24,000 bases of DNA from Eubacteriales bacterium (GCA_045538195.1 JAZSRA010000065.1:1-24000), one strand, 5' to 3'. Numbered from the stretch's first letter, positions 1 to 23,050 are shown. Notes: generated by a model not told the origin, from the sequence alone. Numbers and translations: made by a program.

Positions 1-399
1 ATCGTAATAAAGCTTAAGCTTACTTGCGGCGTAGTTCCTGAAATCCTCGCAGAAGCTTTCAAGATCTACTCCCTTTTCATAGCTCTGATGTCCGTAGCGC
101 GTGCAGTTCCTGTCTATCTCACTAAGCATGCAAAAACGCTCCACGTTCTCTTGCGCTTTTTCGTCGTCTTTCCCCGAACCGTTAGCCGTAGGGTTAGGGG
201 CTATTCTATATTCCACCTTAGGCTCTTTTGACTCCTGAGACATGATCGTAATGATCAATATGGCAACGATGACCAAAACTACCACAAAATAGACAATTAT
301 AGCAGGCATAGAGGTCAGCCTTCCTATCAAGGTCGTGCGAGCCGCTAATGCCGCTTCGCTAACGGCGGCATTTGTTAAAATTGAAAAAATGTATGACAT
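1..399 (-). CDS. Partial CDS (first 133 aa; continues past the window start): membrane-anchored protein paralogous to the post-TM module of the upstream 1124-aa protein
   Basis: Absent from the ORF track because it runs off the edge. Minus-strand ATG at 399-397 with AAGGAG 8 nt upstream, and open to position 1 (MSYIFSILTNAAVSEAALAARTTLIGRLTSMPAIIVYFVVVLVIVAILIITIMSQESKEPK...). One hydrophobic helix. The segment VDLESFCEDFRNYAASKLKLYYD aligns with VDFASAAAEFEKFAAERGFKVSGD of the preceding protein. Confidence 0.6.
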   Translation of the reverse strand, partial: MSYIFSILTNAAVSEAALAARTTLIGRLTSMPAIIVYFVVVLVIVAILIITIMSQESKEPKVEYRIAPNPTANGSGKDDEKAQENVERFCMLSEIDRNCTRYGHQSYEKGVDLESFCEDFRNYAASKLKLYYD

Positions 400-422: not shown

Positions 423-3400
423 TTACGCTCTGTTCGATCCGCACGCCTTGATAACTCTCTTGCAAGCCTCTGCGCGGTCTTCACCAAATATAGCCTCAAC
501 GGTCTCATCGAGGCTCTTACCGTCCTCTGCCGTGGCGCCCTTTTGAGCCAACATTACGGGGACCATCAGCTTAGCGGCAACCGCCTCATCAACGGCATTG
601 ATCTGCTCGCCGCCGCATGCAAGATAAACGTATGCAAACTTTTCAAGGCAAAGCCAAAGCTTGTTTCCGATATGGAAGGGGGTTTGATGATTGATCTTTT
701 CCTCAAATCGGTCGATCTTCTTCCAAAGCTCCTCGTCAACAGCAAATCGGGACGCAGTTCTCTCAACGAGCCAATCCAACTGATAATAGCTGAATTTATG
801 AACGGTGGACAACTGCTCACTTGCGGCACATTCCGCAATATCGAACAAATTGACCGTAGCAATCTCTGACACGAAATCGGGAAGCTCTGCCACAGATGCG
901 CCCTCGGCAAGATTTATCACAAACCACACGTTTTTGGGAATATAATAGGAAGTCTCTATATTTCTCTCGTTAAAAACGGTAACGTGATTATTTGCAAGAG
1001 GATTCTTTACATAATTCACATAGGAGGAGAAATAGAGAGGCATATTCGCGCCTACAACCTGAGTTAATGCCGCAAGATGAATACTGTGTCCGTTGTTTCT
1101 GGCAGACTCCAAAGCATAATTTATATTTGTCTTGACCTTGTTGCCTTGACCGTCGGTTTTAAACAGAACGCTCTCACAGCTATTGTAGTTATCGTTTACA
1201 CTGTCGATAAACAAAGGGGACTCAAAATAATTGGAAAGCATGAGTAAGAGGGTCTTGAAATCATTGTCGTTCATGCCTTTAACGATCACAAGTCTGGATG
1301 CGGAAAGCGCGGCAAAGATGTTCTTCACTACGTCGCCGCTTACCTTAAATCCTCTTTCTGCGGCAAATTTTTCAAATTCCGCAGCGGCAGACGCAAAATC
1401 CACCTCCCTGTCAATATAGCGCAGGTACTCCGAATCAACGCCTTCTATACGCTCCTCGGTATCAGCGGCAACAGCTTCATCGGCAACGTCAAACTCATCA
1501 ACAAACATTTTTTCCGCATTATAAGCAGAAATCTTCTCCGAGTCCTCGAACATCTTACTGTTCTTTTCATTCAAAGCCGCTTTTTCCGCTTTTCTGATCT
1601 TACTTCTTCTTATCGCCTCGGTTACAAAGAACACGATCGAGGATATTCCCAACACAATGCAGAAAATATCAAAAAACGCCGAATCAAGACTATTCAAAGC
1701 GCAATATATTTTTAAAATTATTGCAAGCGACATAGCGGCCGCTCCCGCTACAATATTGAATATCGACTTTTTCATAGGTTTAAGTTTAGCCTCCAATTTA
1801 AAGTTATCGGAATTAATATTTGATTCCGAATAAATATAGTCACTGATCTTCTTTCCGTCGTATTCAGGCGGCTCCGAACCTGCTGAAATGATTTTTTTCA
1901 GTCTGATATCTTTCAGCGAAGATCCGATATACACCGTGTATTTGCCGGACTCTGTAACAAATCCGCCTTTTTTCGGTGAATATATTTCCGGTATCCTCAA
2001 TGGGATCTGAACCGTTTTCGTCTCGCCGGGACGAAGCTCGACCCGAGCAAATCCGCAAAGCTCCTTCAGAGGACGTATTGCGCCCAGATCTTCATATCCC
2101 ACGTACATCTGGACTGTCTCGACGCCTTCCATAGCCCCGTCATTTTTCACGGTAAAGCTAACAGCATCCTTAGATACCGTCATAGACGAATACGAAAAGC
2201 GCGTATAACTCAAGCCGTGACCGAAAGGAAATCCGTCAAATTCTTCTTCATAATCGTAATAACGGTACCCGATAAAGGGACCTACGCAAAGCTTATCTCG
2301 CACTCTCCTTGTTTTGTAATCCAAATATCTTTGCTCGGTATCAAAATAAAGAGAATTAGCAAGCTTACCCGAGGGACTCACCTTTCCGCTCAAAATGTTC
2401 TGCAACGCCTTTGCACAAAACTTAGTTTTGATCGGTGCCATAACCATTGCAGAGCAGTTCTCGGGGTATCCTACGTCAAGAGGAGTATCCGATGGCAATA
2501 TTGCAATGATCTTCTTATTTTCGGTCTCAAGTGCCTCCAAAAGCCTTTTTTGATTTGCAGGAATAGACAGCTTTCTCTCTTTATGAAGCTTAGAAGCTCT
2601 TTTATCGGTAAATCCGAGGAACAGAAGAACCGCGTCAGCGCTCTTGGCAAGGGACACCGCTCCCTCCACCAGCTCCTCGCTTCTGTCCACGGAAAGATCG
2701 TATCCTCTTTCCAAGCCGGAAACTTGATATCCGCTCTCCGACAATAAAGTCGAAAGCTCATCGGCAAGACAGCAGCCTTCCCCTCCGGACGGCATGGCGA
2801 CGTCTCCGATCAAAGCGATCTTTTCAGAGCGTTTTAACGGCAGACGTCCATTTTGATTTTTAAGCAATACAACCGAGCTTTCCGTGGCTTTTATTGCCAA
2901 CGACTCGTTAGTATCAACAAGGGACAAATTAGGCTTTCTCTTTACCGCAAAAACAAAATCCAGCAATCTATCAAGAGCGTCGTCGATCATCTCCTCAGAA
3001 ATTGCTCTGCCCTTTAAGACTTCACTCTGAAGCTCCTCAACGGTTGAAGTGCCGTGTTCTATCATTTTGGTGAGCTGCTTGTACCTTGACAACGCCGATT
3101 CAAGAGCAAGCGCCGAGCCTTCAAAGAAAAGTCCGCCTCGGTTGATATAGGACACAGTCTTTTCCGCTGTAACGTGAGCGCACAGCGGCGTAGCGTTTTG
3201 CGCTACCTTTCCCTCGGAAACCATTCTCATAAGAGAAGAATTGAGTGCCTTGTAATTTTCAGCCGAGGTGTCCGGTTCTGTAAATATCGCCGCGCAACCT
3301 GTCTTTGAGGTCGTCTCAATATATGGCTTTACTATGTATTCGTATATAAAGCGTTCGTCAGGCTTCTCGTCAAGCCACTCGGCCTCGTCATTATAAACAC

Positions 3401-3797
3401 CAAAACCGCCAACTCCTGCGGCAATCCCCGCTCTCTCTGCCGCCGCGAGATATTCTTTTGATATCTCCGCGCCTAAAAACGGGTCTTCCGAGATAGAAAT
3501 TCTATACGGATTTATCCTAACTCTGGGTTCGGGGATCTTTACAAATCCCATTTCGCGAGAGCCTGCGAGTCTAAAAATATCGTCTGCAACACTTGACACA
3601 AGAGAAACGTCCCAAGTGTTAGACAGCGCTTTCGGTGAGGGATAAACATCTCCGCAAAGCGTCCACACGTCTCCTATACGCACTTCCGGTATGCCAAGCG
3701 CTCTGAAATTTTTATCGGATAAAGCATTAATATCACATAATATGCGAATTTTATCCACATCCGATAATTTTTTTATGACATCAAAATATTTCAACAT
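423..3797 (-). CDS. Large fusion protein: GH3-like glycoside hydrolase module (N-domain, alpha/beta sandwich domain, Fn3-like domain) + 2 TM helices + degenerate P-loop/AAA(McrB)-like C-terminal module
   Basis: GH3 signatures: ISEDPFLGAEI, VVLLKNQNGRLPL, ADAVLLFLG, VSPSGKLANSLY, GHGLSYTRFSYS and PLKELCGFARVELRPGETKTV. TM hairpin: IFNIVAGAAAMSLAIILKIYCAL and FFDIFCIVLGISSIVFFV. The C-terminal region has AAA-like spacing (LVIVKGMNDNDFKTLLLML ... IHLAALTQV ... YIPKNVWFVINLAEG). The track start at 3815 is TTG; ATG at 3797 (MLKYFD) has GGAG 6 nt upstream. Confidence 0.8.
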   Translation of the reverse strand: MLKYFDVIKKLSDVDKIRILCDINALSDKNFRALGIPEVRIGDVWTLCGDVYPSPKALSNTWDVSLVSSVADDIFRLAGSREMGFVKIPEPRVRINPYRISISEDPFLGAEISKEYLAAAERAGIAAGVGGFGVYNDEAEWLDEKPDERFIYEYIVKPYIETTSKTGCAAIFTEPDTSAENYKALNSSLMRMVSEGKVAQNATPLCAHVTAEKTVSYINRGGLFFEGSALALESALSRYKQLTKMIEHGTSTVEELQSEVLKGRAISEEMIDDALDRLLDFVFAVKRKPNLSLVDTNESLAIKATESSVVLLKNQNGRLPLKRSEKIALIGDVAMPSGGEGCCLADELSTLLSESGYQVSGLERGYDLSVDRSEELVEGAVSLAKSADAVLLFLGFTDKRASKLHKERKLSIPANQKRLLEALETENKKIIAILPSDTPLDVGYPENCSAMVMAPIKTKFCAKALQNILSGKVSPSGKLANSLYFDTEQRYLDYKTRRVRDKLCVGPFIGYRYYDYEEEFDGFPFGHGLSYTRFSYSSMTVSKDAVSFTVKNDGAMEGVETVQMYVGYEDLGAIRPLKELCGFARVELRPGETKTVQIPLRIPEIYSPKKGGFVTESGKYTVYIGSSLKDIRLKKIISAGSEPPEYDGKKISDYIYSESNINSDNFKLEAKLKPMKKSIFNIVAGAAAMSLAIILKIYCALNSLDSAFFDIFCIVLGISSIVFFVTEAIRRSKIRKAEKAALNEKNSKMFEDSEKISAYNAEKMFVDEFDVADEAVAADTEERIEGVDSEYLRYIDREVDFASAAAEFEKFAAERGFKVSGDVVKNIFAALSASRLVIVKGMNDNDFKTLLLMLSNYFESPLFIDSVNDNYNSCESVLFKTDGQGNKVKTNINYALESARNNGHSIHLAALTQVVGANMPLYFSSYVNYVKNPLANNHVTVFNERNIETSYYIPKNVWFVINLAEGASVAELPDFVSEIATVNLFDIAECAASEQLSTVHKFSYYQLDWLVERTASRFAVDEELWKKIDRFEEKINHQTPFHIGNKLWLCLEKFAYVYLACGGEQINAVDEAVAAKLMVPVMLAQKGATAEDGKSLDETVEAIFGEDRAEACKRVIKACGSNRA

Positions 3798-3836
3798 ATT
3801 GAACTCCGAAATCAATCTATATCTGTTTTAATCCGC

Positions 3837-4490
3837 TTAATTTACAGGCGTACCGTATGTCTCTTCGCCTAAGGCTCCGTTTTCGGTATCTTCTGCTCCA
3901 ATTTCGACTGTTGTTTCGTTTTCTTCGCCTTCGTTTTCAAAAAAATTATAGCTGAAAAAGACATCAAAAACACACATTATCACCAGCAAAAACGCAACCA
4001 ACGTAGCTATCAGTGCCGAAAGCCGCGGTTTTCCGAACTCTCTCGGGCGTATCGAAAATTCTGTTATATAGTTTGCTCTTGGAGCATTCTTGATTATCTG
4101 CCCGTCAGCCTTGACGTAATCCACGGTAGATCTGCCGTTTCGGACGGTATATTTATATCGTTCAGACATAATTTTCGTGAACACAATTCTAAAATCCGCA
4201 CAATACTCGTCCACCACTATCATCGCAGGAGCAACGTAAGTCGTTCCGGGCATAAAGTTGATGCCGTTATATTTAATTTTTAAGGTTTCAAGTATTTTTC
4301 CCGAAGCATCCATCTGGACAACGGAAAATTCCATAGCGTTCACAACGTAATCAAGCTCATTTAAAAATCTGAGCGTTAAGCATTTCTTTTCGTTGTGTCT
4401 GACAAAAATATACTCTTTTACCGAAACAAGATCGCTGATCTGGGGATGTTCATAAACTCCCTTGGAAATATATTGTCGTTGCGAAGTCAT
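3837..4490 (-). CDS. Hypothetical single-pass membrane protein (soluble beta-rich N-domain, one TM helix, acidic C-tail)
   Basis: The ORF-track start at 4517 is TTG; ATG at 4490 (MTSQRQ) has GAAAGGA 7 nt upstream. TM helix LSALIATLVAFLLVIMCVFDVFF, then the tail ENEGEENETTVEIGAEDTENG. No family recognised. Confidence 0.65.
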   Translation of the reverse strand: MTSQRQYISKGVYEHPQISDLVSVKEYIFVRHNEKKCLTLRFLNELDYVVNAMEFSVVQMDASGKILETLKIKYNGINFMPGTTYVAPAMIVVDEYCADFRIVFTKIMSERYKYTVRNGRSTVDYVKADGQIIKNAPRANYITEFSIRPREFGKPRLSALIATLVAFLLVIMCVFDVFFSYNFFENEGEENETTVEIGAEDTENGALGEETYGTPVN

Positions 4491-4540
4491 TTCAAAATCC
4501 TTTCTCGGATAAACCAATTTCTGATTTTCTGATCGTTGCT

Positions 4541-5251
4541 TTATTTGAATATCTTTACGTCTTTTTCACGGTGAAAAACAAGTATGATTCCCGCAAGCGC
4601 AGCACCCGCCGCCGCCGAAACCAGTATTTGCATAAGGGGCAACCCTGCCGCGATAAGCTTTATTGAAGGGAGTATTACCTCGATCAATGAAAATACCGAC
4701 GATCTTAAGGTCAAATATTCCACCACGGTAAGCACGGCAGTCACAGCGGCAAAGGTAACGACTCTCCAAATCGAATAATGCATTTTAGGGCTACCCGGAA
4801 CAATAAATCTGTTCACTTCCTTAACAACAACACAAACATAAGCAGTATTTTCGGGAAGAATAGCTGCCGCAGCGTCGCCAGATGAAACCTTTGGCACAGA
4901 TATTTGTATCGTGTCTATCTCATTGTTGCCTGAATCCAATGCAACCACGTCATATTTAATGGAAAGTATTCTCTTGTCAAATTTGCATTTTATGTACTTA
5001 TCACCGTCGTTTACGGAAAGTATATACTGCTTTATGTATTTTCCCGTCTCACCGTAGGGCTTATAGGTAATTGCTCTGCCGCCCTCGAAAACATATTTTT
5101 CGAGTCCTCTGTCTCCCATGTCCTGCACATTATAGTTCGCTTTCAGTAAAAACAAGGGCAATATCTTAGACACAAGGGCAACGTACAGAGACAAACTGAA
5201 AACAAATATTATTATTTGTGTCGGGATCGACATTGTGATCATTGTTGTCAT
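4541..5251 (-). CDS. Hypothetical polytopic membrane protein (N-terminal TM anchor, about 120-aa domain related to the 217-aa neighbour, C-terminal TM bundle)
   Basis: ATG at 5251 with AGGAGA 5 nt upstream. Hydrophobic segments at both ends. Central KYIKCKFDKRILSIKYDVVALDSGNNEIDTIQISVP resembles KKCLTLRFLNELDYVVNAMEFSVVQMDASGKILETLKIKY of the neighbouring protein. Confidence 0.65.
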   Translation of the reverse strand: MTTMITMSIPTQIIIFVFSLSLYVALVSKILPLFLLKANYNVQDMGDRGLEKYVFEGGRAITYKPYGETGKYIKQYILSVNDGDKYIKCKFDKRILSIKYDVVALDSGNNEIDTIQISVPKVSSGDAAAAILPENTAYVCVVVKEVNRFIVPGSPKMHYSIWRVVTFAAVTAVLTVVEYLTLRSSVFSLIEVILPSIKLIAAGLPLMQILVSAAAGAALAGIILVFHREKDVKIFK

Positions 5252-5304: not shown

Positions 5305-6795
5305 TTATTTGGCATATTTAGAGAATATCCTTCTCACGTCTTCCTCGGTAACGGTCGAACCACCCAGATGCTTCAGTATTTCCTCGGCAACGGACGTTGC
5401 CATATCGTCCGGCAACGTAATACCGTATTCTTTGATGTATTCCCGGGCATAGGATGCAAGTACCTTTGCCTTTTCTTCTTCACTGGAATATCCTCTGTCG
5501 TTTACCTTGTTGATAGCATCGGCAATATCTTCCATCAACACATTGTATTTTGATGAATCGTAGTCAAATTCTCGGATATATTTCGAAACCGCCGCCATTG
5601 CTATTGAAGAAACGCTGATGCCGCTCATGTTGGGGTTTTCCTTAAGAATAGCATCCAGCCTGCCAACAATATCGCTTTCATTCACATACTCTACAAGAGA
5701 ATTGAAATTGCTCATATTTACGGCAAAAAGATCGCTATCCATCACTGCAGCGTATAGTTTCAACAAAGTGATCATATTAGCCTTTGCGCTGTGATGGTCT
5801 GTGTTTTGACAAACCGAAAGTATTTCATCAAAGGCGGGTTCGATCAGATCGTTGGTAACAGGCTTCGCTATGCCAAAAACCCGATCACCGTTTTTCCATG
5901 CAGTTGCAAAACTTGAAATATATTCACCCAAAGCTCCCGAGAATAGCTCCAGTCTTTCTACGTTATCGCAAAGCCCATATATTCGGCTTATTTGCTCGTC
6001 AGTTGCGTTTTGGGGATCAACGAATGCGCTATACGTGTACTTGAGATCATCAAAAACATCTACCAGTGCGTCTGCTTCGGAAATCAAGTGGACTCTTTCA
6101 CCGTAAACCTCAGCGCTTGCGGCACTATAATACATCAGTTTGCCTCCAAGCTGATAAAAAACATTTCCGCAAAAGTCGTTTGCATAAACAGACAAGTCTA
6201 TTTCGTTTGCACTTTCCGTCACGCTATCCGTCTCGCTTAGTTTAAAATTGCCAACAATACTCAAAGTCTTGTTTGCAACGTCAAGAGTTCCCATTATCGG
6301 ACTCGTTATTACCATAGTTACAACAACCGAAACGATCACACCCGTAATGACCGACAGCACTTTGTCGTTTTGATCAAAATAAGAGTTTTCCTCTTTACAG
6401 TATTCTGGCGTATCAGCGAAACGTCTGATCTTGCTTTTACACACTATACGAACGATAAATTGAGTAATAGCGCGAACCGCAAAAAACACCGCAACGAAAA
6501 GTAGCGACCCGAGGACCATTCCCATGATAGCCTCAACAAATACGTTTACCCAGGAATAGTCTTGAACCAATTCCCGATACACAGAAAGGTTATTGAGAAT
6601 TAAATACGATACAAGGCTTGAAATGACTTCGGAAATGAGATATGTAACCAAAGCGGAAAAAATCACAGAAAACACAACTATAGCAAGTGAGATAAGGGTC
6701 ATTCTGAACCCTTTTTTGATGCTTCGATACACCTCCGTTGCAGTCACCGAGAAAAATATCAACAATATTGCGATCGAAAATAAGCTAAAAGTCAT
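5305..6795 (-). CDS. Membrane protein with a CvpA-like N-terminal TM bundle and a roughly 300-aa helical C-terminal domain
   Basis: ATG at 6795 with AAGAGGA 7 nt upstream. There are 4-5 N-terminal TM helices (FSIAILLIFFSVTA, LISLAIVVFSVIFSALVTYLI, GMVLGSLLFVAVFFAV, VITGVIVSVVVTMVI). The CvpA-family call is by overall resemblance only. Confidence 0.6.
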   Translation of the reverse strand: MTFSLFSIAILLIFFSVTATEVYRSIKKGFRMTLISLAIVVFSVIFSALVTYLISEVISSLVSYLILNNLSVYRELVQDYSWVNVFVEAIMGMVLGSLLFVAVFFAVRAITQFIVRIVCKSKIRRFADTPEYCKEENSYFDQNDKVLSVITGVIVSVVVTMVITSPIMGTLDVANKTLSIVGNFKLSETDSVTESANEIDLSVYANDFCGNVFYQLGGKLMYYSAASAEVYGERVHLISEADALVDVFDDLKYTYSAFVDPQNATDEQISRIYGLCDNVERLELFSGALGEYISSFATAWKNGDRVFGIAKPVTNDLIEPAFDEILSVCQNTDHHSAKANMITLLKLYAAVMDSDLFAVNMSNFNSLVEYVNESDIVGRLDAILKENPNMSGISVSSIAMAAVSKYIREFDYDSSKYNVLMEDIADAINKVNDRGYSSEEEKAKVLASYAREYIKEYGITLPDDMATSVAEEILKHLGGSTVTEEDVRRIFSKYAK

Positions 6796-6915: not shown

Positions 6916-6944
6916 ATTATACCATATACACTCGAATTTGTCAA
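6916..6944 (-). promoter_or_regulatory. Consensus sigma-A type promoter for the 6795->1 operon
   Basis: Minus strand reads TTGACA (6944-6939), a 17-nt spacer, then TATAAT (6921-6916). This lies about 120 nt upstream of the ATG at 6795. Confidence 0.6.
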
Positions 6945-6992: not shown

Positions 6993-7031
6993 AAAACGGC
7001 TGACACCATCGTGTTTGATAGTGTCAGCCGT
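6993..7031 (-). terminator. Rho-independent terminator candidate for the rex-hydS-hydA operon
   Basis: 11-bp perfect inverted repeat ACGGCTGACAC (6996-7006) / GTGTCAGCCGT (7021-7031) with a 14-nt loop. On the minus strand it is followed by TTTAATTT. It lies about 245 nt downstream of the stop at 7277. Confidence 0.5.
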
Positions 7032-7276
7032 ATGAGTCGTAATGCTAAGTAGGTTTTAGATCTATGAGTTCGGCGTAAACCTTGTCTTCTTGAATGATCC
7101 TCTGATCAATATTCAGTCCTCAATTAGACCAAGAACAACCTTCCTAATATCAATATAGGATCGGTAATGCCGCAATCGATGACTTCTTTATAGGCAACAT
7201 CCAATTGATAAACAACTTCATGATGGCTCTTGACAAAGAGCAGATCAAATATTTAAGCAAGCCGTTATCAATTTCT

Positions 7277-8707
7277 TTATTTTAAAATAGATATCGCATC
7301 ACCGATAGTCTTTTCAAGTGACTCACGGCCGTATTTGTCAACCTCGGCTTTATTTTTTTCACCGTGGGTGAGGCATCCTGCGCCGCCGATACAACCGCCG
7401 ACACACGCCATGCCCTCGATAAAGTTGCCGTCAAGCGCACCCTTGCTCAGCTTTAGCAGAGCCACACGGCAGGCTTCAATTCCGTCGCATACCACGGGCT
7501 TTATCTCAAAGTCGATGTTCTGCTCCTTCATCGCCTGTACTGCCGCATCGGTAAGACCTCCGCTGCGGGCAAAGATACGACCGAAGTAGGAAGCGTTATC
7601 GAGGACTCCCTCCTCAAGGGATGCGATATCAAGATCACGGCTGTCAAAGAGTGCCTGAAGCTCCTCAAAGGTCAGCACGGTATCCACGTAAGGCTTGACA
7701 GACTCGAGCTGAGCCTCTGCCTTTTTAGCGGTACAAGGGCCGATAAAGATGACCTTTGCGTTAGGTGTAGTCTCCTTAATGTACTTTGCAAGCACCGCCA
7801 TGGGAGACATATTATGAGAAATATGCTCAACCAGATTCGGGAACGTGGACTTTATGTACTGCACGAATGCGGGACAGCAGGAGCTTGTAAGAAGACCCTT
7901 TTCGGAAAGCTCTCTTGCTTCTGCCATAGCCACCATATCCGCGCCAAGTGCCGCCTCGATAACGTCGTGGAAGCCGAGCTTTTTAAGTCCCGTTACCACC
8001 TGACCCAACTTTGCGTAAGAGAATTGGCTCGAAATAGAGGGAGCAACAACGGCATATACCTTGTAATTGCCGCCTCTTGTGTCGCTCCTGCTCTTTTTGA
8101 GAATATCGATGGCGTTCAGTATAAAGGACTTGTCCATAATTGCGCCGAAGGGACACTGATATACGCAAGCGCCACACTGTATGCACTTGTGGTTGTCGAT
8201 AGCCGCCGCACTTTGCTCGTTCATAGAAATTGCCTTGACCTTGCAAGCATTCTGGCAAGGACGCTTGCGGCTGACGATAGCGGTATAGGGGCAGACCCTG
8301 GCACAGGCACCGCACTCCTTACACTTGGATTTGTCGATGTGTGCAACGTGATTGTGGTCGAAGGTGATAGCACCGAATTTGCACACGTCCTCGCAACGGT
8401 GAGCGAGACAGCCGCGGCAGGCGTTGGTCACCTCATAACCGCCAACGGGACACTCGTCGCAGGCGATATCTATGACCTGTATAATATTAGGATTATCCTT
8501 GTCGCCGCCCATCGCCAGCTTGACTCTCTCGCCAAGAATTGCTCTTTCCTTATATACGCAACAGCGCATAGTAGGCTCGTTACCTGGTACGATGTTTTTG
8601 GGAATATCCATAATATTATCAAGCAGCTTATCCTCCCACGCGAGGCGAGCCACTTCACGCAATACTTTATATTTTAAATGTTGTACTTTTGTATCAAATT
8701 TACGCAT
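7277..8707 (-). CDS. hydA: [FeFe] hydrogenase, monomeric ferredoxin-type (group B-like), with N-terminal Cys-rich and 2x[4Fe-4S] ferredoxin domains
   Basis: H-cluster motifs LTSSCCPAFV, FIGPCTAKKAEA and EGMACVGGCIGGAG. Ferredoxin motifs CKECGACARVCP and CIQCGACVYQCP. N-terminal MRCCVYKERAI and CDECPVGGY. The track start at 8719 is TTG; ATG at 8707 (MRKFD) sits 8 nt after the PP2C stop, with GAGGTG as RBS. Confidence 0.9.
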   Translation of the reverse strand: MRKFDTKVQHLKYKVLREVARLAWEDKLLDNIMDIPKNIVPGNEPTMRCCVYKERAILGERVKLAMGGDKDNPNIIQVIDIACDECPVGGYEVTNACRGCLAHRCEDVCKFGAITFDHNHVAHIDKSKCKECGACARVCPYTAIVSRKRPCQNACKVKAISMNEQSAAAIDNHKCIQCGACVYQCPFGAIMDKSFILNAIDILKKSRSDTRGGNYKVYAVVAPSISSQFSYAKLGQVVTGLKKLGFHDVIEAALGADMVAMAEARELSEKGLLTSSCCPAFVQYIKSTFPNLVEHISHNMSPMAVLAKYIKETTPNAKVIFIGPCTAKKAEAQLESVKPYVDTVLTFEELQALFDSRDLDIASLEEGVLDNASYFGRIFARSGGLTDAAVQAMKEQNIDFEIKPVVCDGIEACRVALLKLSKGALDGNFIEGMACVGGCIGGAGCLTHGEKNKAEVDKYGRESLEKTIGDAISILK

Positions 8708-8715
8708 TTTACACC

Positions 8716-9888
8716 TCAAAAATAACTAACTTTAATGCGTTTGCCCATTTTCTTGAGACAAGCAGATAATTCCTCAACAAGATTCATTTTGATGTTGAAA
8801 TTGATTGGAAGATCAGGGTTTTGATGTGCGGGGTTGACCGCTCTGCCGACGTAGAAGTTGATATCCGTCGCTTCTTCAAACAAAAGTCGGCTGATAAGTG
8901 ACGCGCCATCCTTTTTAAAGCTCCATTCCTCGTAAAGTTCATTCTTGCCAAGGTAATCCTTTGCATACTGAATGACCTTGTTCATGGTAATAACCCCTTC
9001 GGTTACGAGGTCAACGCCCTCGATGCGCGCGATAGGGGGAACGTCGCTTCTTTCAAAGTTAAGGCTTGCCTGAATGGGCTTGCCCAGATATTTTGACGCG
9101 ATTGAAGAAGTAGTGCCGCCGCAGATGATGTGCTTACCCTCTTTGGAGAAGAAAAGCGACATCATTCTATTTGCGTCGTCGCGGTTGGAGGGAGGCCCAA
9201 AAAGAATATTCATAGGCTCTCGCTTTCTGATCTTAATAACGCAAGCGGTAGTATCGTCTCCCGGCTTGTGACCGTAAAGCTTGTCGCATTCGTCAACCAG
9301 CATCGTTGAAAGATTTTTGGCAGTAAAGCCGCCCGCCACCATCGCCTGCATATAGTCGGCGATATCCTGCCTTTTCCAACCGAAATTGTATTTCCCACCC
9401 ATTCCTGCGTGGGGACATCCGTCGCTCATAGCGATAAACGTGTCGTCCTCCTGCAGTTTAATGGTGGATTTGTATATTTTTTTGCCACCGATGTTCATTT
9501 CGGTCATAGGATAATCGTACTGATCGTAATTTCTTATTATGATCACGTGAGGATTATCGTACTGAATGATCTCGGCTATTTCGTTGTTCAGAAGATGAAT
9601 AATAGTAAAGGTGGAATACGCCACGCCGCGTACCGAGCAAACGGGAAGCGTTGCGGCTATGGTAGACACACATTCTTCAATGGGAAGTCCTGCCGCCATC
9701 ATCGTTGAGATGATCTTGGAGGTCAGAGTGGAGAGAATGCTTGCCTTAACACCCGAACCCAGACCGTCTGCAAGTACGATGACCGTGGAATTTTCGTTTT
9801 CCTCCACGATGTCTACGTGGTCGCCGCAAAGCTCCTCGCCGACGTGATTGATGCTCTTATATCCGATATCTGCACACAAATCATTCAT
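8716..9888 (-). CDS. PP2C/SpoIIE-family serine phosphatase with an uncharacterised roughly 170-aa C-terminal domain
   Basis: N-terminal GEELCGDHVDIVEENENSTVIVLADGLGSGVKASILS ... FIAMSDGCPHAG is typical of the SpoIIE/RsbU PP2C fold. The ATG at 9888 overlaps the hydS stop by 8 nt (ATGAATGA). Confidence 0.85.
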   Translation of the reverse strand: MNDLCADIGYKSINHVGEELCGDHVDIVEENENSTVIVLADGLGSGVKASILSTLTSKIISTMMAAGLPIEECVSTIAATLPVCSVRGVAYSTFTIIHLLNNEIAEIIQYDNPHVIIIRNYDQYDYPMTEMNIGGKKIYKSTIKLQEDDTFIAMSDGCPHAGMGGKYNFGWKRQDIADYMQAMVAGGFTAKNLSTMLVDECDKLYGHKPGDDTTACVIKIRKREPMNILFGPPSNRDDANRMMSLFFSKEGKHIICGGTTSSIASKYLGKPIQASLNFERSDVPPIARIEGVDLVTEGVITMNKVIQYAKDYLGKNELYEEWSFKKDGASLISRLLFEEATDINFYVGRAVNPAHQNPDLPINFNIKMNLVEELSACLKKMGKRIKVSYF

Positions 9889-11560
9889 CGTCGATAGACT
9901 CCTTCAGCTTAGTTAGCGCGACCTTGGTCTCCGCGGCGGTCTCGCCCAGCAGAGATGCTATCTCCTGAACGATCCTCATCTGCTTTTCAACAACGGTATC
10001 GGCAACCTCAACGGTCTTCTTGTTGATCATTGCCTTTCTCTCTCTGTCGGCTTCTTCGTCGGTAATGTCTCGCATAATACCGATGAGCATACGGGAATCG
10101 GGATCGTAAACCACGGTTTGTCTGATGTATTTTTTGTACTCGGCAAGGTAAACTCTCTGGTCACGAACGCTTCTGCCGGTCTCCATTACTTTAATGAAAA
10201 CCGCAGGATCGAGAATGCGGACTACCGGCTCACCCAACACGTCGCTTTCGGAGCGAATGTTCATGATCTTACGTGCGGAGGCGTTAATTTGCTGAACCTC
10301 AAGATTCTCGTTCAACGCGATAAGACCGTTGGGTGTATTCTTTACAATAGTGTCCGAAAAGCTCTCCGCCTTGTCCTTAAGGAAGGGCAGACACATAGAG
10401 ATTTCCGCCTTGCCCTGAATGATAGCGATAGCCTTTTCACGGCAGGAATTGTAGCCACAGGAGCCGCAGTTCAATTCATCGGAGGACTTGAACTTGCCCA
10501 TCTGACGCAGAACGGTCATGATCTCATTTTCTGAGGGCTGCGCGAGCTTATGCTCGATCATTGAAAAGTGCTTTTTGAGACTCATCGAATCAGGCTGCGC
10601 TACTTCAAAATCGCGTTCTCCCGCATAATCGGAAACCGTGATATAGTCCTTTATGGGAGAAGACCTATGATACTTTTCCATAACGGGACCACCGATACAG
10701 CTGCCTACGCAAGCAGACATCTCGATGAAGCACTTGTGGATCTTGCCGCTTTCGATGTCCTTGAGGGCAGAGATGCAGTTCTCAACGCCGTCAAGGGCAA
10801 GATAAGTATATCCGGGTGCATTTTGAGCCATTGTTTTCAATACACCGCCTGTGGTGGGAAAGAAGCGTGCGCGGCTTTCGGGCGTGTTGTCCACTTCCTT
10901 TTCAAGCTCGATCTTTTCTGCTTTAAGCCAGTTGGTAAGCTCCTCAAATGTGAGAACTGCGTCAACGATGCCCTCGTAATATTCAGCTTCGTCCTTCTTT
11001 GCCACGCAAGGACCTATAAATACGGTCTTTGCCCCGGGGTATCTTCTTTTTATATCCGCACAATGCGCCTGCATAGGGGACATAACGTCCGCGAGATATT
11101 CAAGGCAGGAGGGAAAGTATTTTTGAATGAGCAGATTGACCGAGTGGCAGCAGGAGGTTATTATAATGTCCCTCTCATCCTCGAAAAGCATGCGCTCATA
11201 TTCGGTCTTAACGATAGTTGCACCGATAGCAGTTTCCTCAACGCCGTAAAAGCCCAGCTTTTTTAAAGCTCGGCGAATAGATTCGATACCAACGCCCTCG
11301 TAGTTTGCGATGAAGGAGGGAGCCAAGCTGACTATAACGGGATCCTTGCTCTGAAGCAGAACTCTCGCTTTTTCGGTGCTGTCAACGATTTCCTTTGCGT
11401 TTTGAGGACAAACTACAAAACAATGACCGCACAAAATGCACTCATTGCCGATGATATGCGCCTGGTTGCCCGAAAAACGTATCGCCTTTACAGGACAGTG
11501 ACGGATACATTTATAGCAATTTTTGCAATTCGATTTTTTTAGTGTCAAGCAATTTGCCAT
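9881..11560 (-). CDS. hydS: Putative sensory [FeFe] hydrogenase (HydS type, group C): 2x[4Fe-4S] + H-domain + extra 4-Cys motif + PAS domain
   Basis: CKNCYKCIRHCP and CILCGHCFVVCP. Variant H-cluster motifs ITSCCHSVN, FIGPCVAKKDEAE and IEMSACVGSCIGGP. C-terminal CGSCGYNSCREKA followed by a PAS-like segment (NTPNGLIALNENLEVQQINASARKIMN...IGIMRDITDEE). The track start at 11569 is TTG; ATG at 11560 (MANCLTLKK) has AAAGGGG upstream. Confidence 0.85.
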   Translation of the reverse strand: MANCLTLKKSNCKNCYKCIRHCPVKAIRFSGNQAHIIGNECILCGHCFVVCPQNAKEIVDSTEKARVLLQSKDPVIVSLAPSFIANYEGVGIESIRRALKKLGFYGVEETAIGATIVKTEYERMLFEDERDIIITSCCHSVNLLIQKYFPSCLEYLADVMSPMQAHCADIKRRYPGAKTVFIGPCVAKKDEAEYYEGIVDAVLTFEELTNWLKAEKIELEKEVDNTPESRARFFPTTGGVLKTMAQNAPGYTYLALDGVENCISALKDIESGKIHKCFIEMSACVGSCIGGPVMEKYHRSSPIKDYITVSDYAGERDFEVAQPDSMSLKKHFSMIEHKLAQPSENEIMTVLRQMGKFKSSDELNCGSCGYNSCREKAIAIIQGKAEISMCLPFLKDKAESFSDTIVKNTPNGLIALNENLEVQQINASARKIMNIRSESDVLGEPVVRILDPAVFIKVMETGRSVRDQRVYLAEYKKYIRQTVVYDPDSRMLIGIMRDITDEEADRERKAMINKKTVEVADTVVEKQMRIVQEIASLLGETAAETKVALTKLKESIDDE

Positions 11561-11565
11561 ATCCG

Positions 11566-11829
11566 TCAACCCCTTTCGCTTTCTATAACATCAAGTATAT
11601 TTTTCTTGAAAAATTCTCTGAAATTATCTCTCGTCACGCCAACGTGAATGTCATCGTTTACCTGAACGGTAACGCCAATGCGGTTGCACTTTCCGATGCA
11701 AAAGCTACCGGAAAGCACTACCTCATCCTCAATATGATATTCTTCCAAGGCTTTTTCAAAAAGCTCGACTATATCCTGTGAGCCTTTGAGGTAGCAAGAC
11801 GAGCCAACACAAACCTGAACAAACAACAT
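11566..11829 (-). CDS. Thioredoxin-like [2Fe-2S] ferredoxin (NuoE/HndA-fold small protein), copy 2
   Basis: MLFVQVCVGSSCYLKGSQ...SGSFCIGKCNRIGVTVQVND has a CxxxxC...CxxxC pattern. It is a paralogue of the upstream ORF. The track's 113-aa version overlaps the upstream gene; the internal ATG at 11829 lies 4 nt after that gene's stop. Confidence 0.75.
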   Translation of the reverse strand: MLFVQVCVGSSCYLKGSQDIVELFEKALEEYHIEDEVVLSGSFCIGKCNRIGVTVQVNDDIHVGVTRDNFREFFKKNILDVIESERG

Positions 11830-11833
11830 GATC

Positions 11834-12076
11834 TTATACCTTTGCCAAAACTTCTCTAGCGAAGAACTCTCCAACGCTTTCGGGAGTAACGGAATGGAAG
11901 GAGTCATTTACAGTTACGCATACGCCCTGCTGGCACTTGCCCATGCAGAAGGTGCCGCCAAGCTCTACCTTGTCTCCGATATTGTTCTCAGCGATCAGAT
12001 TCTGGAGCTGTTCTACTACCTGACGGGAACCCTTAATGTGACAGGAGCTTCCGATACAAACTGTGATCTTTATCAT
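11834..12076 (-). CDS. Thioredoxin-like [2Fe-2S] ferredoxin (NuoE/HndA-fold small protein), copy 1
   Basis: MIKITVCIGSSCHIKGSRQVV...GGTFCMGKCQQGVCVTVND has the same four-Cys pattern. RBS AAGAGGAA lies 7 nt upstream of the ATG at 12076. Confidence 0.8.
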   Translation of the reverse strand: MIKITVCIGSSCHIKGSRQVVEQLQNLIAENNIGDKVELGGTFCMGKCQQGVCVTVNDSFHSVTPESVGEFFAREVLAKV

Positions 12077-12177
12077 AATTCTATTCCTCTTTTATTTTTA
12101 ATTTTTTGGGGTTCCAACCCTTTTTTGTAGGATATGCGTTAAATTGGAGTTTGTAGGGGGATACGAGGGATGCGACC

Positions 12178-12199
12178 TACTTTCTTTGAAAAGAAAGTA
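12178..12199. promoter_or_regulatory. Perfect 22-bp palindrome (10-2-10) in the kinase-ferredoxin intergenic region
   Basis: TACTTTCTTT-GA-AAAGAAAGTA. No U-tract follows on the minus strand, so it is not a canonical terminator. It is a candidate operator or an RNA processing/stability hairpin. Confidence 0.4.
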
Positions 12200-12246
12200 A
12201 GCCGCCGGAGGCACGCTTCCTCACCGATAAATCAAAATTTGAACAA

Positions 12247-12996
12247 TTACTGATGATCTGCAACGCTGCCCCAGTTCATAAGGAATTCGCGCTCTGCCTC
12301 GTTACCGTTGACCGACTGAGATGCCGCTACTATAGGCACCCACTTCTGAATGTACTGCTTTTCGGTGTCGCTCTTCTTACAGAAGAGGTCGAGATAAAGT
12401 TCAGCTCCGCCGATGTCGCCGTTCAGACAGAAGATAATGTAGGTGCGTGCAGCGTCTGCTGATGCGTTACCCTGAGTTGCATGAGACCAATCGAGGATAT
12501 AGGGGGTGCCGTCCTCGGTGATAATGATGTTGGAGGGGTTAAAATCTCCATGGCAGACCTTGTTGTGCTTGGGCATACCCTCAAGACGGGTGTGAAGATC
12601 GTAACGGGTGGTTGCGTCAAGCTCGGTATCGGCGATCTTTTGGTTCATCTTGTCCTTCAGCTTGTTGAGAAGGGGACAGGTCTTTGCGTGAACGTTCATC
12701 TGAAGGTCAACAAGAAGCTCGATATACTCGTTCTTCTTTTCGGGCTGCTCTGTCAGCAGCTGTGCCAGCGTTTTACCCTTGATGAACTCGGAAACGATCG
12801 CCCACTTGCCGTCGATCATAGTGACCTCAATAACCTTGGGGATGTTCAGACCGATCTCCTCGATCCTTGCCTGATTGAGCGCCTCATTCAGCACGTCTGC
12901 CTTGGAATATTCTGCGTTAAAGACCTTGATGCATCTGTCACCGTCACGGTAGATGGTCTTATTATTTCTTACTGCGATTACTCTGTCAAGTTTCAT
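12247..12996 (-). CDS. Protein kinase-like fold enzyme (aminoglycoside phosphotransferase/choline kinase superfamily); probable Ser/Thr kinase partner of the PP2C
   Basis: Catalytic loop CHGDFNPSNIIITEDGTPYILDWSHATQGNASADAARTY (HxDxxxxN ... DW). N-lobe Lys context DRCIKVF. Strong RBS GGGGAGGA upstream of the ATG at 12996. Confidence 0.75.
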   Translation of the reverse strand: MKLDRVIAVRNNKTIYRDGDRCIKVFNAEYSKADVLNEALNQARIEEIGLNIPKVIEVTMIDGKWAIVSEFIKGKTLAQLLTEQPEKKNEYIELLVDLQMNVHAKTCPLLNKLKDKMNQKIADTELDATTRYDLHTRLEGMPKHNKVCHGDFNPSNIIITEDGTPYILDWSHATQGNASADAARTYIIFCLNGDIGGAELYLDLFCKKSDTEKQYIQKWVPIVAASQSVNGNEAEREFLMNWGSVADHQ

Positions 12997-13057
12997 TTAT
13001 CTGTCCTCCCCTATTATCTGCGAGTTTGCAACGCCGCGATAGTAGTCCTGCTGAAAA

Positions 13058-13681
13058 TTATTTGCTGATTTGATTATTGAGATACGCTAAGGAAAGGGCG
13101 AGATTTTCTTGCTTTAAAAGAACGCCCGATGGAAGAGAGAGGGTGCAGGGCGCGAAATTCCAGATCGCTGTAATACCGCTTGCTACCATTATGTCGCAAA
13201 CCTCCTGCGCCGAGCCTTGTCCTACCGTAATTACTCCCAGCTTAACGTCATTCTTCTTGCAAAAAGCTTCAAGATCCTTGATAGGCATGATAGATTTTGA
13301 ACCATTGCCCATCTGAATAACACGGTCGTTGCTATCAAACCCCGCGATGATCTTTACTCCAAACGCCTCAAAGCCGTCGTAGTCGAGAAGTGCCTTGCCA
13401 AGCTTTCCTGCACCGACCAAAACCGCGTTAGTAAGACTCTCTCGTCCGAGATGTCTTTCAATATCTGATATTAGCTTTTCTTTTTCGTAACCGACTTTAG
13501 GTTTTCCCGCACCGCTTACTGCTTGGAGATCCTTGCGGACCTGTACGTCGCCAAGGGACAATCCCTTTGCAATTGCCGTCGCGGATATTGTACTGCCATG
13601 AATCGTCGGAAGATCTTTCAAATATTGAAGATATGTAGGGAGCCTTCCGAGAGTTGCCTTTGGGATAGAATTTCCGTTCAT
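13058..13681 (-). CDS. rex: Redox-sensing transcriptional repressor Rex
   Basis: IPKATLGRLPTYLQYL winged-helix N-terminus, a Rossmann GxGxxG (VLVGAGKLGKALL) and GITAIWNFAP near the C-terminus. RBS GGAGGTGG. Confidence 0.9.
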   Translation of the reverse strand: MNGNSIPKATLGRLPTYLQYLKDLPTIHGSTISATAIAKGLSLGDVQVRKDLQAVSGAGKPKVGYEKEKLISDIERHLGRESLTNAVLVGAGKLGKALLDYDGFEAFGVKIIAGFDSNDRVIQMGNGSKSIMPIKDLEAFCKKNDVKLGVITVGQGSAQEVCDIMVASGITAIWNFAPCTLSLPSGVLLKQENLALSLAYLNNQISK

Positions 13682-13735
13682 TTTCCACCTCCGGTTTTTA
13701 TTGACATTATTTTATCATATATTTAAATTTTTGGG

Positions 13736-13775
13736 AATAATTAAAATGTTATATCGGTATTATAAATATCGATAT
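13736..13775 (-). promoter_or_regulatory. Copy A of a 40-bp conserved promoter/operator block, upstream of rex
   Basis: AATAATTAAAATGTTATATCGGTATTATAAATATCGATAT is 38/40 identical to 18657-18696. On the minus strand it contains TATAAT (13764-13759) and the palindrome ATATCGATAT in the -35/-10 spacer. It lies 55-94 nt upstream of the rex ATG. Confidence 0.55.
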
Positions 13776-13982
13776 GCCTTTAATCGATAAAATATATATC
13801 AAAAAAACGAGCAGTTTTGTGTTATTGACGAAATAGCTCGCCCATATTGTATTTTGCTTGGAAAATGGACGGAGAAAATGACAAAACAGACATAATTCAT
13901 CGCTCCGAAATCGTTTTACACACTTATTTTACCACGGTTTGACTCAAAATGCAATACGTTATAAAAAAAATGTCAATTTTTG

Positions 13983-14013
13983 AAAAAAGGAAGGCCGCGA
14001 TATGCGACCTTCC
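13983..14013 (-). terminator. Rho-independent terminator downstream of nfnB
   Basis: Minus strand reads GGAAGGTCGC-atatc-GCGGCCTTCC (one mismatch) followed by TTTTTTC. It lies about 70 nt after the stop at 14082. Confidence 0.7.
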
Positions 14014-14081
14014 CAGAAGACTCATCCGGGGCTATACGGTGGCTCAAACCGTTTTTACGGATAAGTTCATCTGCAATTAAT

Positions 14082-21850: not shown

Positions 21851-21923
21851 AAGAAATCTCCTTATAAAATGATTTTTTATGAAAGAATCGGTGCTAAATC
21901 GCACTACACTCTTTCATATGCTC

Positions 21924-21952
21924 ATGATATCACAATTATTCAAAAAAGTCAA
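21924..21952 (-). promoter_or_regulatory. Promoter candidate for the surface-protein gene
   Basis: Minus strand reads TTGACT (21952-21947), a 17-nt spacer, then TATCAT (21929-21924). Confidence 0.55.
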
Positions 21953-21957
21953 GGCAC

Positions 21958-21993
21958 ATTTTGGACAAATCAATTATATATTTTGGACATCAA
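21958..21993 (-). promoter_or_regulatory. Tandem direct repeats abutting the -35 of the surface-protein promoter
   Basis: ATTTTGGACAAATCAA (21958-21973) and ATTTTGGACATCAA (21980-21993) start 22 bp apart. The proximal copy ends 5 bp from the -35. Confidence 0.4.
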
Positions 21994-22049
21994 ATACATA
22001 TTCGTGACAAATCGATAGCGAATTTTTGTCGCTTTAGCCCAAAAAGCTT

Positions 22050-22661: not shown

Positions 22662-22665
22662 AAAC

Positions 22666-22700
22666 AAAAAGAGAGACCTGCCACAAGGTCTCTCTTATTT
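22666..22700. terminator. Bidirectional rho-independent terminator overlapping the XRE stop codon
   Basis: AAGAGAGACC (22669-22678), loop tgccacaa, GGTCTCTCTT (22687-22696). On the minus strand it is followed by TTTTGTTTGTGTTTT. Confidence 0.7.
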
Positions 22701-22937: not shown

Positions 22938-22995
22938 ATTTAACTAACTCCCCGCAGTGAAAAATTTTTTCTTTCATTATTATATTACCCCATTT

Positions 22996-23014
22996 GAGTT
23001 AAAAAGGTTAACTC
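22996..23014. promoter_or_regulatory. Inverted repeat between the divergent XRE gene and the plus-strand promoter (operator candidate)
   Basis: GAGTTAA-aaagg-TTAACTC, ending 7 bp before the -35 at 23022. Confidence 0.4.
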
Positions 23015-23021
23015 AATAGGG

Positions 23022-23050
23022 TTGACAATTGGAGTTTCTCGTGGTATAAT
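23022..23050 (+). promoter_or_regulatory. Perfect consensus sigma-A promoter with no ORF immediately downstream
   Basis: TTGACA (23022-23027), a 17-nt spacer, then TATAAT (23045-23050). Confidence 0.6.

Follow-up and report, generated by a model that had tools for sequence, protein, structure and literature searches.

The sequence analysed here, referred to as the window, is a 24,000-nucleotide stretch of DNA from a Eubacteriales bacterium (GCA_045538195.1 JAZSRA010000065.1:1-24000). Near its left end lie four tightly spaced minus-strand genes, all encoding membrane proteins, and the fourth of these (gene D, Table 1) specifies a large protein in which a homolog of glycoside hydrolase family 3 (GH3) enzymes is joined by a predicted transmembrane (TM) hairpin to a homolog of the AAA+ nucleoside triphosphatase (NTPase) McrB. 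A scan of the window listed gene D as an intact open reading frame (ORF) beginning at a TTG codon (423..3815); the true start is the ATG at 3797, which has a GGAG Shine-Dalgarno sequence 6 nt upstream and encodes a methionine that is nearly invariant among homologs. The product is 1124 amino acids (aa) in length. The initial annotation of this DNA had given coordinates that match this ATG-started protein (423-3797), leaving its strand unstated. The base composition of the region is ordinary for the window, and no exact copy of the protein was found in the sequence collection searched. An alignment of 77 full-length homologs (A1) was the source of the family profile and of the column counts given below, and an AlphaFold2 (AF2) model of the full-length protein built on this alignment had a mean predicted local distance difference test score (pLDDT) of 89.8. 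As judged from these comparisons, the D protein is a double pseudoenzyme whose GH3-like and McrB-like modules each appear to lack catalytic residues, and it is almost certainly not a glycosidase.

A Pfam scan of the D protein matched GH3_C at aa 309-531 (2.9e-27) and an Fn3-like domain at aa 560-627 (1.9e-16), and did not detect the catalytic domain PF00933. NCBIfam beta-glucosidase/xylosidase models matched the protein from about aa 267 onward only, far below their cut-offs, and a single-sequence phmmer search of the PDB aligned aa 49-155 to GH3 domain 1 in a weak but collinear fashion. With the 77-sequence family profile, positions 4-217 aligned to residues 5-241 of Clostridium thermocellum BglB (7ms2) with a domain E-value of 3.5e-31, and the whole-protein match, which covered both GH3 domains, had an E-value of 1e-139. 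Foldseek superposed the AF2 model on BglB-type GH3 structures over approximately 700 columns, with TM-scores (normalised to target) of 0.68-0.78. The three-domain GH3 architecture that the initial annotation had recognised by eye is thus borne out by Pfam, by the profile and by the model.

At the positions that define GH3 catalysis, the alignment to 7ms2 placed neither an Asp nucleophile nor an acid/base Glu in the D protein. The K-H dyad is replaced by G130 and G131 (K is kept in 4/77 homologs and H in 3/77), and the Tyr of sYN by T177 (Tyr kept in 1/77). The S-D-W triplet aligns to C206-A207-H208, within TPLCAHV; Asp is present at the nucleophile column in 8/77 homologs, and Trp at the following column in none of the 77. 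The acid/base Glu corresponds to K403 and is kept in 5/77 homologs, while the loop that carries it (the SEG.DR region of domain 2) is variable and often deleted in the family, being gapped in 27/77. The Asp of DGPHG is retained as D43, and Asp is found at this position in 11/77 homologs. Over seven GH3 active-site positions, 48 of the 77 homologs keep no canonical residue and no sequence keeps more than two. Neither SDW nor KH occurs anywhere in aa 1-650 of the D protein, and no alternative acidic pair is conserved. The initial annotation had therefore read the motifs correctly (GGFG at the KHF position, TPLCAHV at the nucleophile motif, no SDW), and its description of the module as catalytically degenerate stands.

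GH3 signatures with no catalytic role are conserved in the family, namely SEDP, LLKN, GYRYYD and PFGHGLSY. Mean identity to the query was 32% in domain 1, 30-42% in the folded domains and the hairpin, and 25% in the cytoplasmic linker; since domain 1 is conserved to about the same degree as the other regions, this is a maintained pseudoenzyme and not a decaying gene. Together, the alignments and the model show the N-terminal 640 aa to be a selectively maintained GH3 beta-glucosidase homolog that is predicted to be folded and to lack the nucleophile, the acid/base and the sugar-binding residues. No paper on a bacterial GH3 pseudoenzyme was found in the literature searched.

Hydropathy and the AF2 model predicted two TM helices, at approximately aa 679-702 and 707-728, separated by a loop of about five residues; the corresponding helices in the model span 680-702 and 707-749. 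The hairpin is preceded by a juxtamembrane motif, SNI....[YF].LEA, that is conserved in the family consensus. Lysine and arginine residues number five before the hairpin, none in the loop and eight after it, and no hydrophobic or signal-like segment was found at the N-terminus of the protein. From this pattern, both large modules are predicted to lie in the cytoplasm, and hydropathy, model and charge counts agree with the initial annotation in its claims of an absent signal peptide, two adjacent TM helices and two cytoplasmic modules.

The C-terminal module was more difficult to place. When the last 395 aa were searched alone as a single sequence, no match was obtained in Pfam, NCBIfam or PDB sequence searches, and homology became visible only through a downstream paralog, profile comparison and fold search. 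The gene that follows in related loci specifies a protein of 431-442 aa, made up of an N-terminal TM helix and an AAA_5 domain. The C-terminal module aligned to this intact paralog over about 340 residues in BLASTP (8e-12), and comparison of the two families by hhalign gave a probability of 99.7% and an E-value of 7.7e-26 over 325 columns. The best PDB sequence match of the paralog family was Escherichia coli McrB, to which it aligns ungapped and motif for motif, and the paralog also has a weak match to the NCBIfam McrB model. Walker A (GMSGTGKTS in the paralog, GPPGVGKTF in E. coli McrB), the Walker B region with its DExN...F..E pattern (LDEMNIARVEYYFAEFLSLLE and IDEINRANLSKVFGEVMMLME, respectively) and the PEN strand with NxxD (LPENMWFIGTANNDDS and VPENVYIIGLMNTADRS) all correspond. 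A separate AF2 model of the C-terminal module had a pLDDT of 91.4 and a predicted TM-score (pTM) of 0.91, and its top Foldseek matches were the McrB structures 6hz4 (6hz4_E, 1.2e-6) and 6ut6, with E-values of about 1e-6; NorQ, MCM, CbbQ, RavA, ComM and dynein followed lower in the results.

Aligned with this intact paralog, the module in the D protein has lost each of the motifs associated with nucleotide hydrolysis. Its Walker A position, GMNDNDFKT, aligns with GMSGTGKTS and lacks the P-loop glycines, and the column of the Walker A lysine is occupied by Phe, Leu or Tyr in 67/77 homologs (F47, L16, Y4), with other residues in the remainder. The initial annotation had regarded the KT of this motif as retained, but that reading is one residue off register: F847 occupies the Lys column and K848 the Thr column, and both K848 and T849 are variable in the family, so that the apparent match is a coincidence. 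The Walker B position reads LTQ, the D-E columns being T/D/S and N/G/D across the 77 homologs, and the arginine of the paralog's YDR is replaced in the family of the D protein by I, V, T or L. The paralog's NNDD, its NxxD or sensor-1 element, aligns to A964-E965-G966-A967, and the Asn column is most often Ala, Lys or Ser (A25, K16, S12). The NxxD signature, with its sensor-1 Asn, is required for GTP hydrolysis in the McrB family (PMC11090510); the D protein is without it. The core strands are retained, including the invariant N956 in P-x-N-x-W-F (the PKNVWF strand of the D protein), as are the lid motifs IGNK.W, ACGG....A.D and FGE, which are common to the live paralog; this retention fits a need for the fold and its assembly surfaces without the chemistry. 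BLASTP, hhalign, Foldseek and the motif columns thus uphold the degenerate McrB-like P-loop module of the initial annotation, and show the C-terminal 330 aa to be a McrB-type AAA+ module, folded as predicted, without Walker A, Walker B, NxxD/sensor-1 or the arginine.

An exhaustive search with the C-terminal module returned 629 cluster representatives (50% identity) at E <=1e-3 and 419 at E <=1e-10. A word-indexed search that returned six fragments had suggested a rare family, a view overturned by the exhaustive search. Most members are 1050-1300 aa in length and have the C-terminal module at about residues 730-1120, indicating that the architecture is conserved. The closest genomes are metagenome-assembled genomes of gut 'Eubacteriales bacterium', with 91-92% protein identity. 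An origin in a mobile element was considered and rejected, as the family had no match in the plasmid and phage collections searched. In public sources, members are named 'beta-glucosidase' or 'GH3 C-terminal domain-containing protein' (for example P0008, P0014 and P0036); given the loss of catalytic residues throughout the family, these names are probably functional misannotations.

Not every member carries the GH3 part. In the related locus L013, the slot of gene D in an otherwise complete operon is filled by a 463-aa protein consisting only of the juxtamembrane motif, the hairpin and the pseudo-AAA+ module. Further short forms of about 450-515 aa were P0027, P0069, P0074, P0080, P0085, P0105 and P0132. 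Several 'short' members proved to be gene-call fragments that start inside the Fn3-like domain, and a short form was counted as genuine only if it had the hairpin near its N-terminus. Since the GH3-less forms keep the hairpin and the dead AAA+ module, these two constitute the core of the protein, with the pseudo-GH3 module as an accessory that is therefore dispensable in some lineages.

Within the window, gene D follows genes A, B and C (Table 1), for which the window copies had no Pfam, NCBIfam or PADLOC family match. Orthologs of gene A are weakly CvpA/Colicin_V-like (in L013 the ortholog matched Colicin_V at 1.3e-5, which does not reach the Pfam cut-off). The position of gene C is conserved in loci L003-L009 and L013-L015, and that of gene B likewise in related loci; the idea that B and C are paralogs of each other was rejected, as BLAST showed no similarity between them. 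Downstream of gene D, the window contains the beginning of an McrB-like NTPase gene, E1, with an ATG at 399 and an AAGGAG Shine-Dalgarno sequence, and tblastn with the E1 protein of L015 matched it at 60% identity (1.6e-18). Full-length E1 orthologs are present in L010 and L012. Nucleotide homology to loci L001 and L002, which are 87% identical to the window, begins exactly at the likely operon promoter (6944/6945).

Table 1. Coordinates and properties of the features discussed, in the window and in related loci (L numbers).
Feature	Sequence	Position	Strand	Description	Basis
Gene D	window	423..3797	-	pseudo-GH3, TM hairpin and pseudo-McrB AAA+; 1124 aa	ORF, ATG with Shine-Dalgarno, Pfam, AF2 model
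D, aa 1-290	window	2928..3797	-	GH3 domain 1 (TIM-barrel-like) homolog without catalytic residues	family profile vs 7ms2, column counts
D, aa 300-531	window	2205..2900	-	GH3 C-terminal alpha/beta sandwich	Pfam PF01915 (2.9e-27), alignment to 7ms2, column counts
D, aa 535-640	window	1878..2195	-	Fn3-like domain of GH3 enzymes	Pfam PF14310 (1.9e-16), beta-sandwich in AF2 model
D, aa 679-728	window	1614..1763	-	predicted two-helix TM hairpin	hydropathy, K+R counts, AF2 helices, family consensus
D, aa 801-1124	window	426..1397	-	degenerate McrB-type AAA+ module: large alpha/beta subdomain and helical lid	BLASTP, hhalign, AF2, Foldseek, motif columns
Gene A	window	5305..6795	-	four N-terminal TMs and C-terminal domain of ~330 aa; L015 ortholog 6e-49	ORF, TM scan
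Gene B	window	4541..5251	-	N-terminal TM, domain of ~130 aa, 2-3 C-terminal TMs; L015 ortholog 3.6e-25	ORF, TM scan
Gene C	window	3837..4517	-	soluble domain of ~150 aa and C-terminal TM helix; L015 ortholog 2.5e-20	ORF
Gene E1, start	window	1..399	-	first 133 codons: N-terminal TM anchor and start of McrB-like AAA+, cut before Walker A	ATG 399
Likely operon promoter	window	6916..6944	-	TTGACA-17-TATAAT, 12/12, extended -10 TG	consensus scan
Intrinsic-terminator-like hairpin	window	6996..7031	-	15-bp stem; closes upstream hydrogenase cluster and marks 5' boundary of operon	consensus scan
Sensory-hydrogenase-type cluster	window	7277-11569	-	three genes	
562-aa ORF	window	20216-21904	-	no Pfam match	
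AT-richer, ORF-poor region	window	21900-24000		about 2 kb	
Small HTH gene	window	22695-22937		Cro/C1-type	
Gene A	relatives			~500 aa, four TMs, weakly CvpA-like	
Gene B	relatives			~235 aa	
Gene C	relatives			~190 aa	
Gene E1	relatives			McrB-like NTPase, one TM	
Gene F	relatives			~550 aa, soluble; DUF2357 N-domain (McrC N-domain) and long coiled coil	
Gene E2	relatives			McrB-like NTPase, two TMs	
Genes G1, G2	relatives			700-1650 aa; N-terminal anchor, transglutaminase core, Ig-like surface-protein domains	
Short form in gene D slot	L013	7273-8664		463 aa	
E1; E2	L013	8680-9975; 11631-12968			
E1; E2	L014	8645-9967; 11664-13016			
E1; E2	L015	8546-9874; 11681-13036			
E1; E2	L005	5711-7036; 8762-10123			
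G genes	L005	10150-13854		one gene before contig end	
G genes	L015	13080-21198			
G genes	L014	13078-20364			

The remainder of the operon was obtained from relatives. Complete operons came from contigs encoding DUF2357 homologs, a tighter-alignment search giving three metagenome loci and a genome scan two. On the long contigs L005 and L013-L015, the gene order is A-B-C-D-E1-F-E2-G1-G2, L005 having room for only one G gene. The order A-D is the same at every family member examined, at protein identities of 24-34%, while the flanking genes differ. At all loci examined, gene D precedes a TM-anchored McrB-like NTPase with intact motifs, the NTPases bearing TM anchors in place of reader domains. 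Gene D is therefore the fourth gene of an operon that has intact McrB-like NTPases and a DUF2357 protein at its core, and its pseudo-ATPase has a live paralog adjoining it. The DUF2357 protein, F, is encoded two genes downstream of gene D, and it is found with an intact McrB-like NTPase in a single operon in L005 and L012-L015. Pfam detected DUF2357 in 20 of 32 F homologs, the L015 copy scoring just above the gathering cut-off. A PDB profile search with the DUF2357 family returned coiled-coil noise and no McrC, so that the DUF2357 assignment rests on Pfam. HMM (hidden Markov model) searches found no nuclease domain in F, and its C-terminal half gave coiled-coil matches only.

Across the AAA+ domain, E1 and E2 are 92-99.7% identical within a genome, compared with 79-83% for orthologs between genomes, which implies concerted evolution by gene conversion; only the membrane anchors set the two copies apart (one TM against two). 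Loci L001-L004, L006-L009 and L011 end a few hundred bases to approximately 1.3 kb past gene D, inside the first NTPase gene, as the window itself does, while L012 stops within the second copy. Short-read assemblies probably break at the duplicated NTPase repeat, which is about 1.1 kb long, and metagenome bins would as a consequence systematically lack the downstream half of the operon. The G1 and G2 proteins have a common C-terminal region, 29-34% identical, and Ig-like adhesin-type domains (AgI/II_C2, YDG, MBG), and the transglutaminase proteins have weak TgpA_N matches. The G gene of L005 also has a Ser/Asp-rich repeat region matching models of staphylococcal SD-repeat adhesins.

Upstream of the promoter, the sequences of the relatives diverge from the window. 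L001 jumps to the gene at window position 14082-14840, so that a block of about 7 kb with hydrogenase, SpoIIE, Rex and kinase genes (window 7000-14082) represents an indel between the window and L001; in L002 the sequence at this place is unrelated. The three genes clustered within this block, a set typical of sensory [FeFe]-hydrogenase signalling, specify a 480-aa HydA-like protein, a 390-aa phosphatase of the SpoIIE/PP2C type and a 562-aa hydrogenase-like protein that has a PAS domain together with an additional Fe-S motif. The only gene seen in the last 2 kb of the window is the small helix-turn-helix (HTH) gene of Table 1. Rfam and repeat scans of the window gave nothing relevant, and no Rfam family or significant repeat was found in 21900-24000.

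Each part of this arrangement can be compared with known systems. The three-domain architecture of the D protein is common to BglB-type GH3 enzymes (C. thermocellum BglB, 7ms2; PSTG1, 8j9f; Bifidobacterium adolescentis GH3, 5wab), and like them it has no signal peptide and is predicted to be cytoplasmic. It differs from them in its fusion to a TM hairpin and an AAA+ module, in its location in a non-carbohydrate operon, and in the loss of the catalytic and -1 subsite residues. Membrane-tethered pseudoenzymes derived from glycosidases serve as scaffold or co-receptor subunits in 4F2hc/rBAT (GH13-like) and alpha-Klotho (GH1-like). By analogy, these would resemble the D protein as a dead glycoside hydrolase fold, anchored to the membrane, that acts as a non-enzymatic subunit of a complex; they are, however, eukaryotic and extracellular and come from other GH families, whereas the D protein is bacterial, predicted to be cytoplasmic, GH3-derived and fused to a second pseudoenzyme. 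The operons of the MoxR-DUF58/VWA-TgpA type combine an AAA_5 ATPase with a membrane transglutaminase. They share with the operon described here an AAA_5-class ATPase and large membrane-anchored Transglut_core proteins, but here the ATPase is of the McrB type and is paired with a DUF2357 protein, a VWA protein was not found, and the gene content is different.

McrB itself (E. coli; 6hz4, 6ut6) is the best structural match of the C-terminal module, its motifs are matched by the adjoining paralog, and its partner is represented in relatives by the DUF2357 protein. Unlike McrB, the D protein is membrane-tethered, has a pseudo-glycosidase in place of a DNA-reader domain, and is without NTPase motifs. 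With McrBC type IV restriction systems the operon has in common an McrB-like NTPase and a DUF2357 protein, whereas a PD-(D/E)xK nuclease and a reader domain were not found in HMM searches. A closer resemblance is to the CoCoPALM/CoCoNuT-like McrBC derivatives (Bell et al., eLife 2024, PMC11090510), which share with it an N-terminal TM on the McrB-like NTPase, a coiled-coil McrC homolog, loss or inactivation of the nuclease in some types, and large operons. These clades carry an NxD signature, while the NNDD of the live paralog is NxxD when aligned ungapped to E. coli McrB, although an NxD+D reading is possible. CoCoPALMs, in which an NxD-type GTPase is fused to an FtsB-like TM/coiled-coil domain, are also tied to signal-peptidase and pilus genes, and no peptidase or pilus genes were found in L013-L015. 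The McrBC census in the same paper mentions no GH3-like protein, pseudo-McrB subunit or transglutaminases (PMC11090510). The initial annotation could not assign the fusion to any described system, and no paper was found in the literature searched on the operon or the architecture, on PDC-M26, on DUF2357 with transglutaminase, or on McrB with transglutaminase, membrane and AAA+; the protein can nevertheless be assigned to an operon with McrB-like NTPases and DUF2357. What is new here is thus an McrBC-derived system with a double-pseudoenzyme subunit, conserved in gut Clostridia, of which no published description was found.

On balance, we think it rather probable that the D protein serves, without catalysis of its own, as a scaffold or regulatory subunit in an NTPase complex that derives from McrBC and is embedded in the membrane. 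The dead AAA+ module would dock onto, or be built into, a ring of its live paralogs E1 and E2, and this docking would link the NTPase ring to membrane partners. The pseudo-GH3 module would provide a large platform in the cytoplasm, perhaps a dimer as its BglB-type relatives are, by which the complex is organised or gated, and protein F would activate the live NTPases in the way that McrC activates McrB. The energy might then serve a membrane or cell-surface process involving the G1 and G2 transglutaminase proteins rather than DNA cleavage. In other AAA+ assemblies, inactive subunits dock onto or join rings. McrC binds and activates the McrB hexamer through its DUF2357 domain (PMC11090510; PMC6624300), and PcdA of Staphylococcus aureus is an McrB-family protein co-opted to a non-restriction role (PMC10602043). 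Several points weigh against a scaffold role in such a complex. An interaction between the D protein and the NTPases is suggested by gene adjacency and paralogy alone, and the loss of the nuclease from F is likewise indicated by negative HMM results alone. The full-length AF2 model has a pTM of just 0.67, leaving the relative placement of the modules undefined. Because the window holds only the first 133 codons of E1, the rest of the operon is deduced from relatives at 33-92% identity. The pseudo-GH3 module may retain residual or non-canonical ligand binding, and the AAA+ region of the live NTPase matches a PADLOC candidate phage-defence model, PDC-M26A, at 1.6e-44.

In a rival reading, the pseudo-GH3 module is a sensor, which would bind a cytoplasmic glycoside or glycoconjugate (a cell-wall precursor, a recycling product or a glycosylated phage component) and relay its occupancy by way of the pseudo-AAA+ module, turning the McrB-like motor on or off, much as the variable N-terminal domains of McrB homologs read their targets. 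Pseudoenzymes derived from glycosidases can be binding proteins, as are chitinase-like lectins and Klotho, and purifying selection acts on a GH3 fold that is still intact; the N-terminal domains of McrB homologs are, moreover, specificity modules (PMC11090510). We nevertheless consider a sensor unlikely, as the seven -1 subsite and catalytic positions are unconserved in the family, whose members often lack the acid/base loop, so that the former active site preserves no shared ligand pocket, and as genuine forms without the GH3 part occur in otherwise complete operons. Where the initial annotation proposed a ligand-sensing or scaffold protein, then, the scaffold fits better and sensing is weakened. 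It is similarly unlikely that the nine genes make up a divergent anti-phage system of the McrBC type in which the D protein is an infection sensor or decoy, located at the membrane where it would detect phage entry or trigger abortive infection. Such a role is favoured by the core of McrB-like and DUF2357 (McrC-like) proteins, by the match to PDC-M26A, by the existence of nuclease-less, coiled-coil McrBC relatives (PMC11090510), and by the behaviour of the operon as a discrete module whose flanks differ among loci even at 87% nucleotide identity. No nuclease, DNA- or RNA-binding reader domain or recognised toxic effector was found, however, and no other component (the D protein, the DUF2357 protein, the transglutaminase protein and genes A-C) matches a PADLOC defence model. 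Typical defence-island neighbours were not seen, with the exception of one NERD gene in L007, and the plasmid and phage collections contained no member of the family. Enzyme-like outputs are limited to the two transglutaminase-core proteins, which carry Ig domains of the adhesin type and are predicted to be extracellular. For the operon we favour a role in the envelope or at the surface over phage defence, although we would put its chances at somewhat below even.

Two further explanations take the D protein by itself. The database name 'beta-glucosidase', the intact GH3 fold and the presence of D or E at the nucleophile column in 19/77 homologs might point to a working beta-glucosidase and/or NTPase with non-canonical catalytic residues. 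With Ala at the nucleophile, G-G at the K-H dyad and Lys at the acid/base position, with at most two of seven canonical residues in any homolog and no conserved alternative acidic pair, and with the Walker A Lys changed to a hydrophobic residue and the P-loop glycines absent, we regard activity of either kind as very improbable. The loss of every catalytic motif in both modules would also be expected of a functionless fusion on its way to becoming a pseudogene, an explanation to which we give almost no credence: the 1124-codon ORF is intact, at least 419 clusters (50% identity) have the same architecture, all regions are similarly conserved, both AF2 models are very confident, and the position in the operon has been kept over deep divergence.

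If the D protein is a scaffold or regulatory subunit as we propose, two different dead enzymes in one polypeptide, with a live paralog adjoining, offer a clean model for the recruitment of inactive subunits into AAA+ assemblies. The several hundred clusters labelled 'beta-glucosidase' would meanwhile inflate glycosidase counts in surveys of carbohydrate utilisation in gut metagenomes. More tentatively, the D protein may be the signature subunit of an undescribed class of McrBC-derived machines, in which a restriction-type AAA+ GTPase ring and its DUF2357 activator have lost the nuclease, are anchored in the membrane, have taken on a dead paralog joined to a dead glycosidase, and couple NTP hydrolysis in the cytoplasm to an extracellular process performed by the giant transglutaminase-core surface proteins. 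Such a machine would be an immune motor domesticated for envelope biology, comparable to PcdA but in the form of a nine-gene trans-membrane complex, and in gut Clostridia the extracellular process might, for example, cross-link or remodel the cell surface. The operon supplies a concrete gene set in these abundant and poorly studied bacteria. It also widens the range of McrBC derivatives to one that is wholly membrane-anchored, in which no nuclease was detected and the transglutaminase-core proteins are predicted to face outward, and it therefore bears on the question of how often immune motors are domesticated for cell-biological roles.

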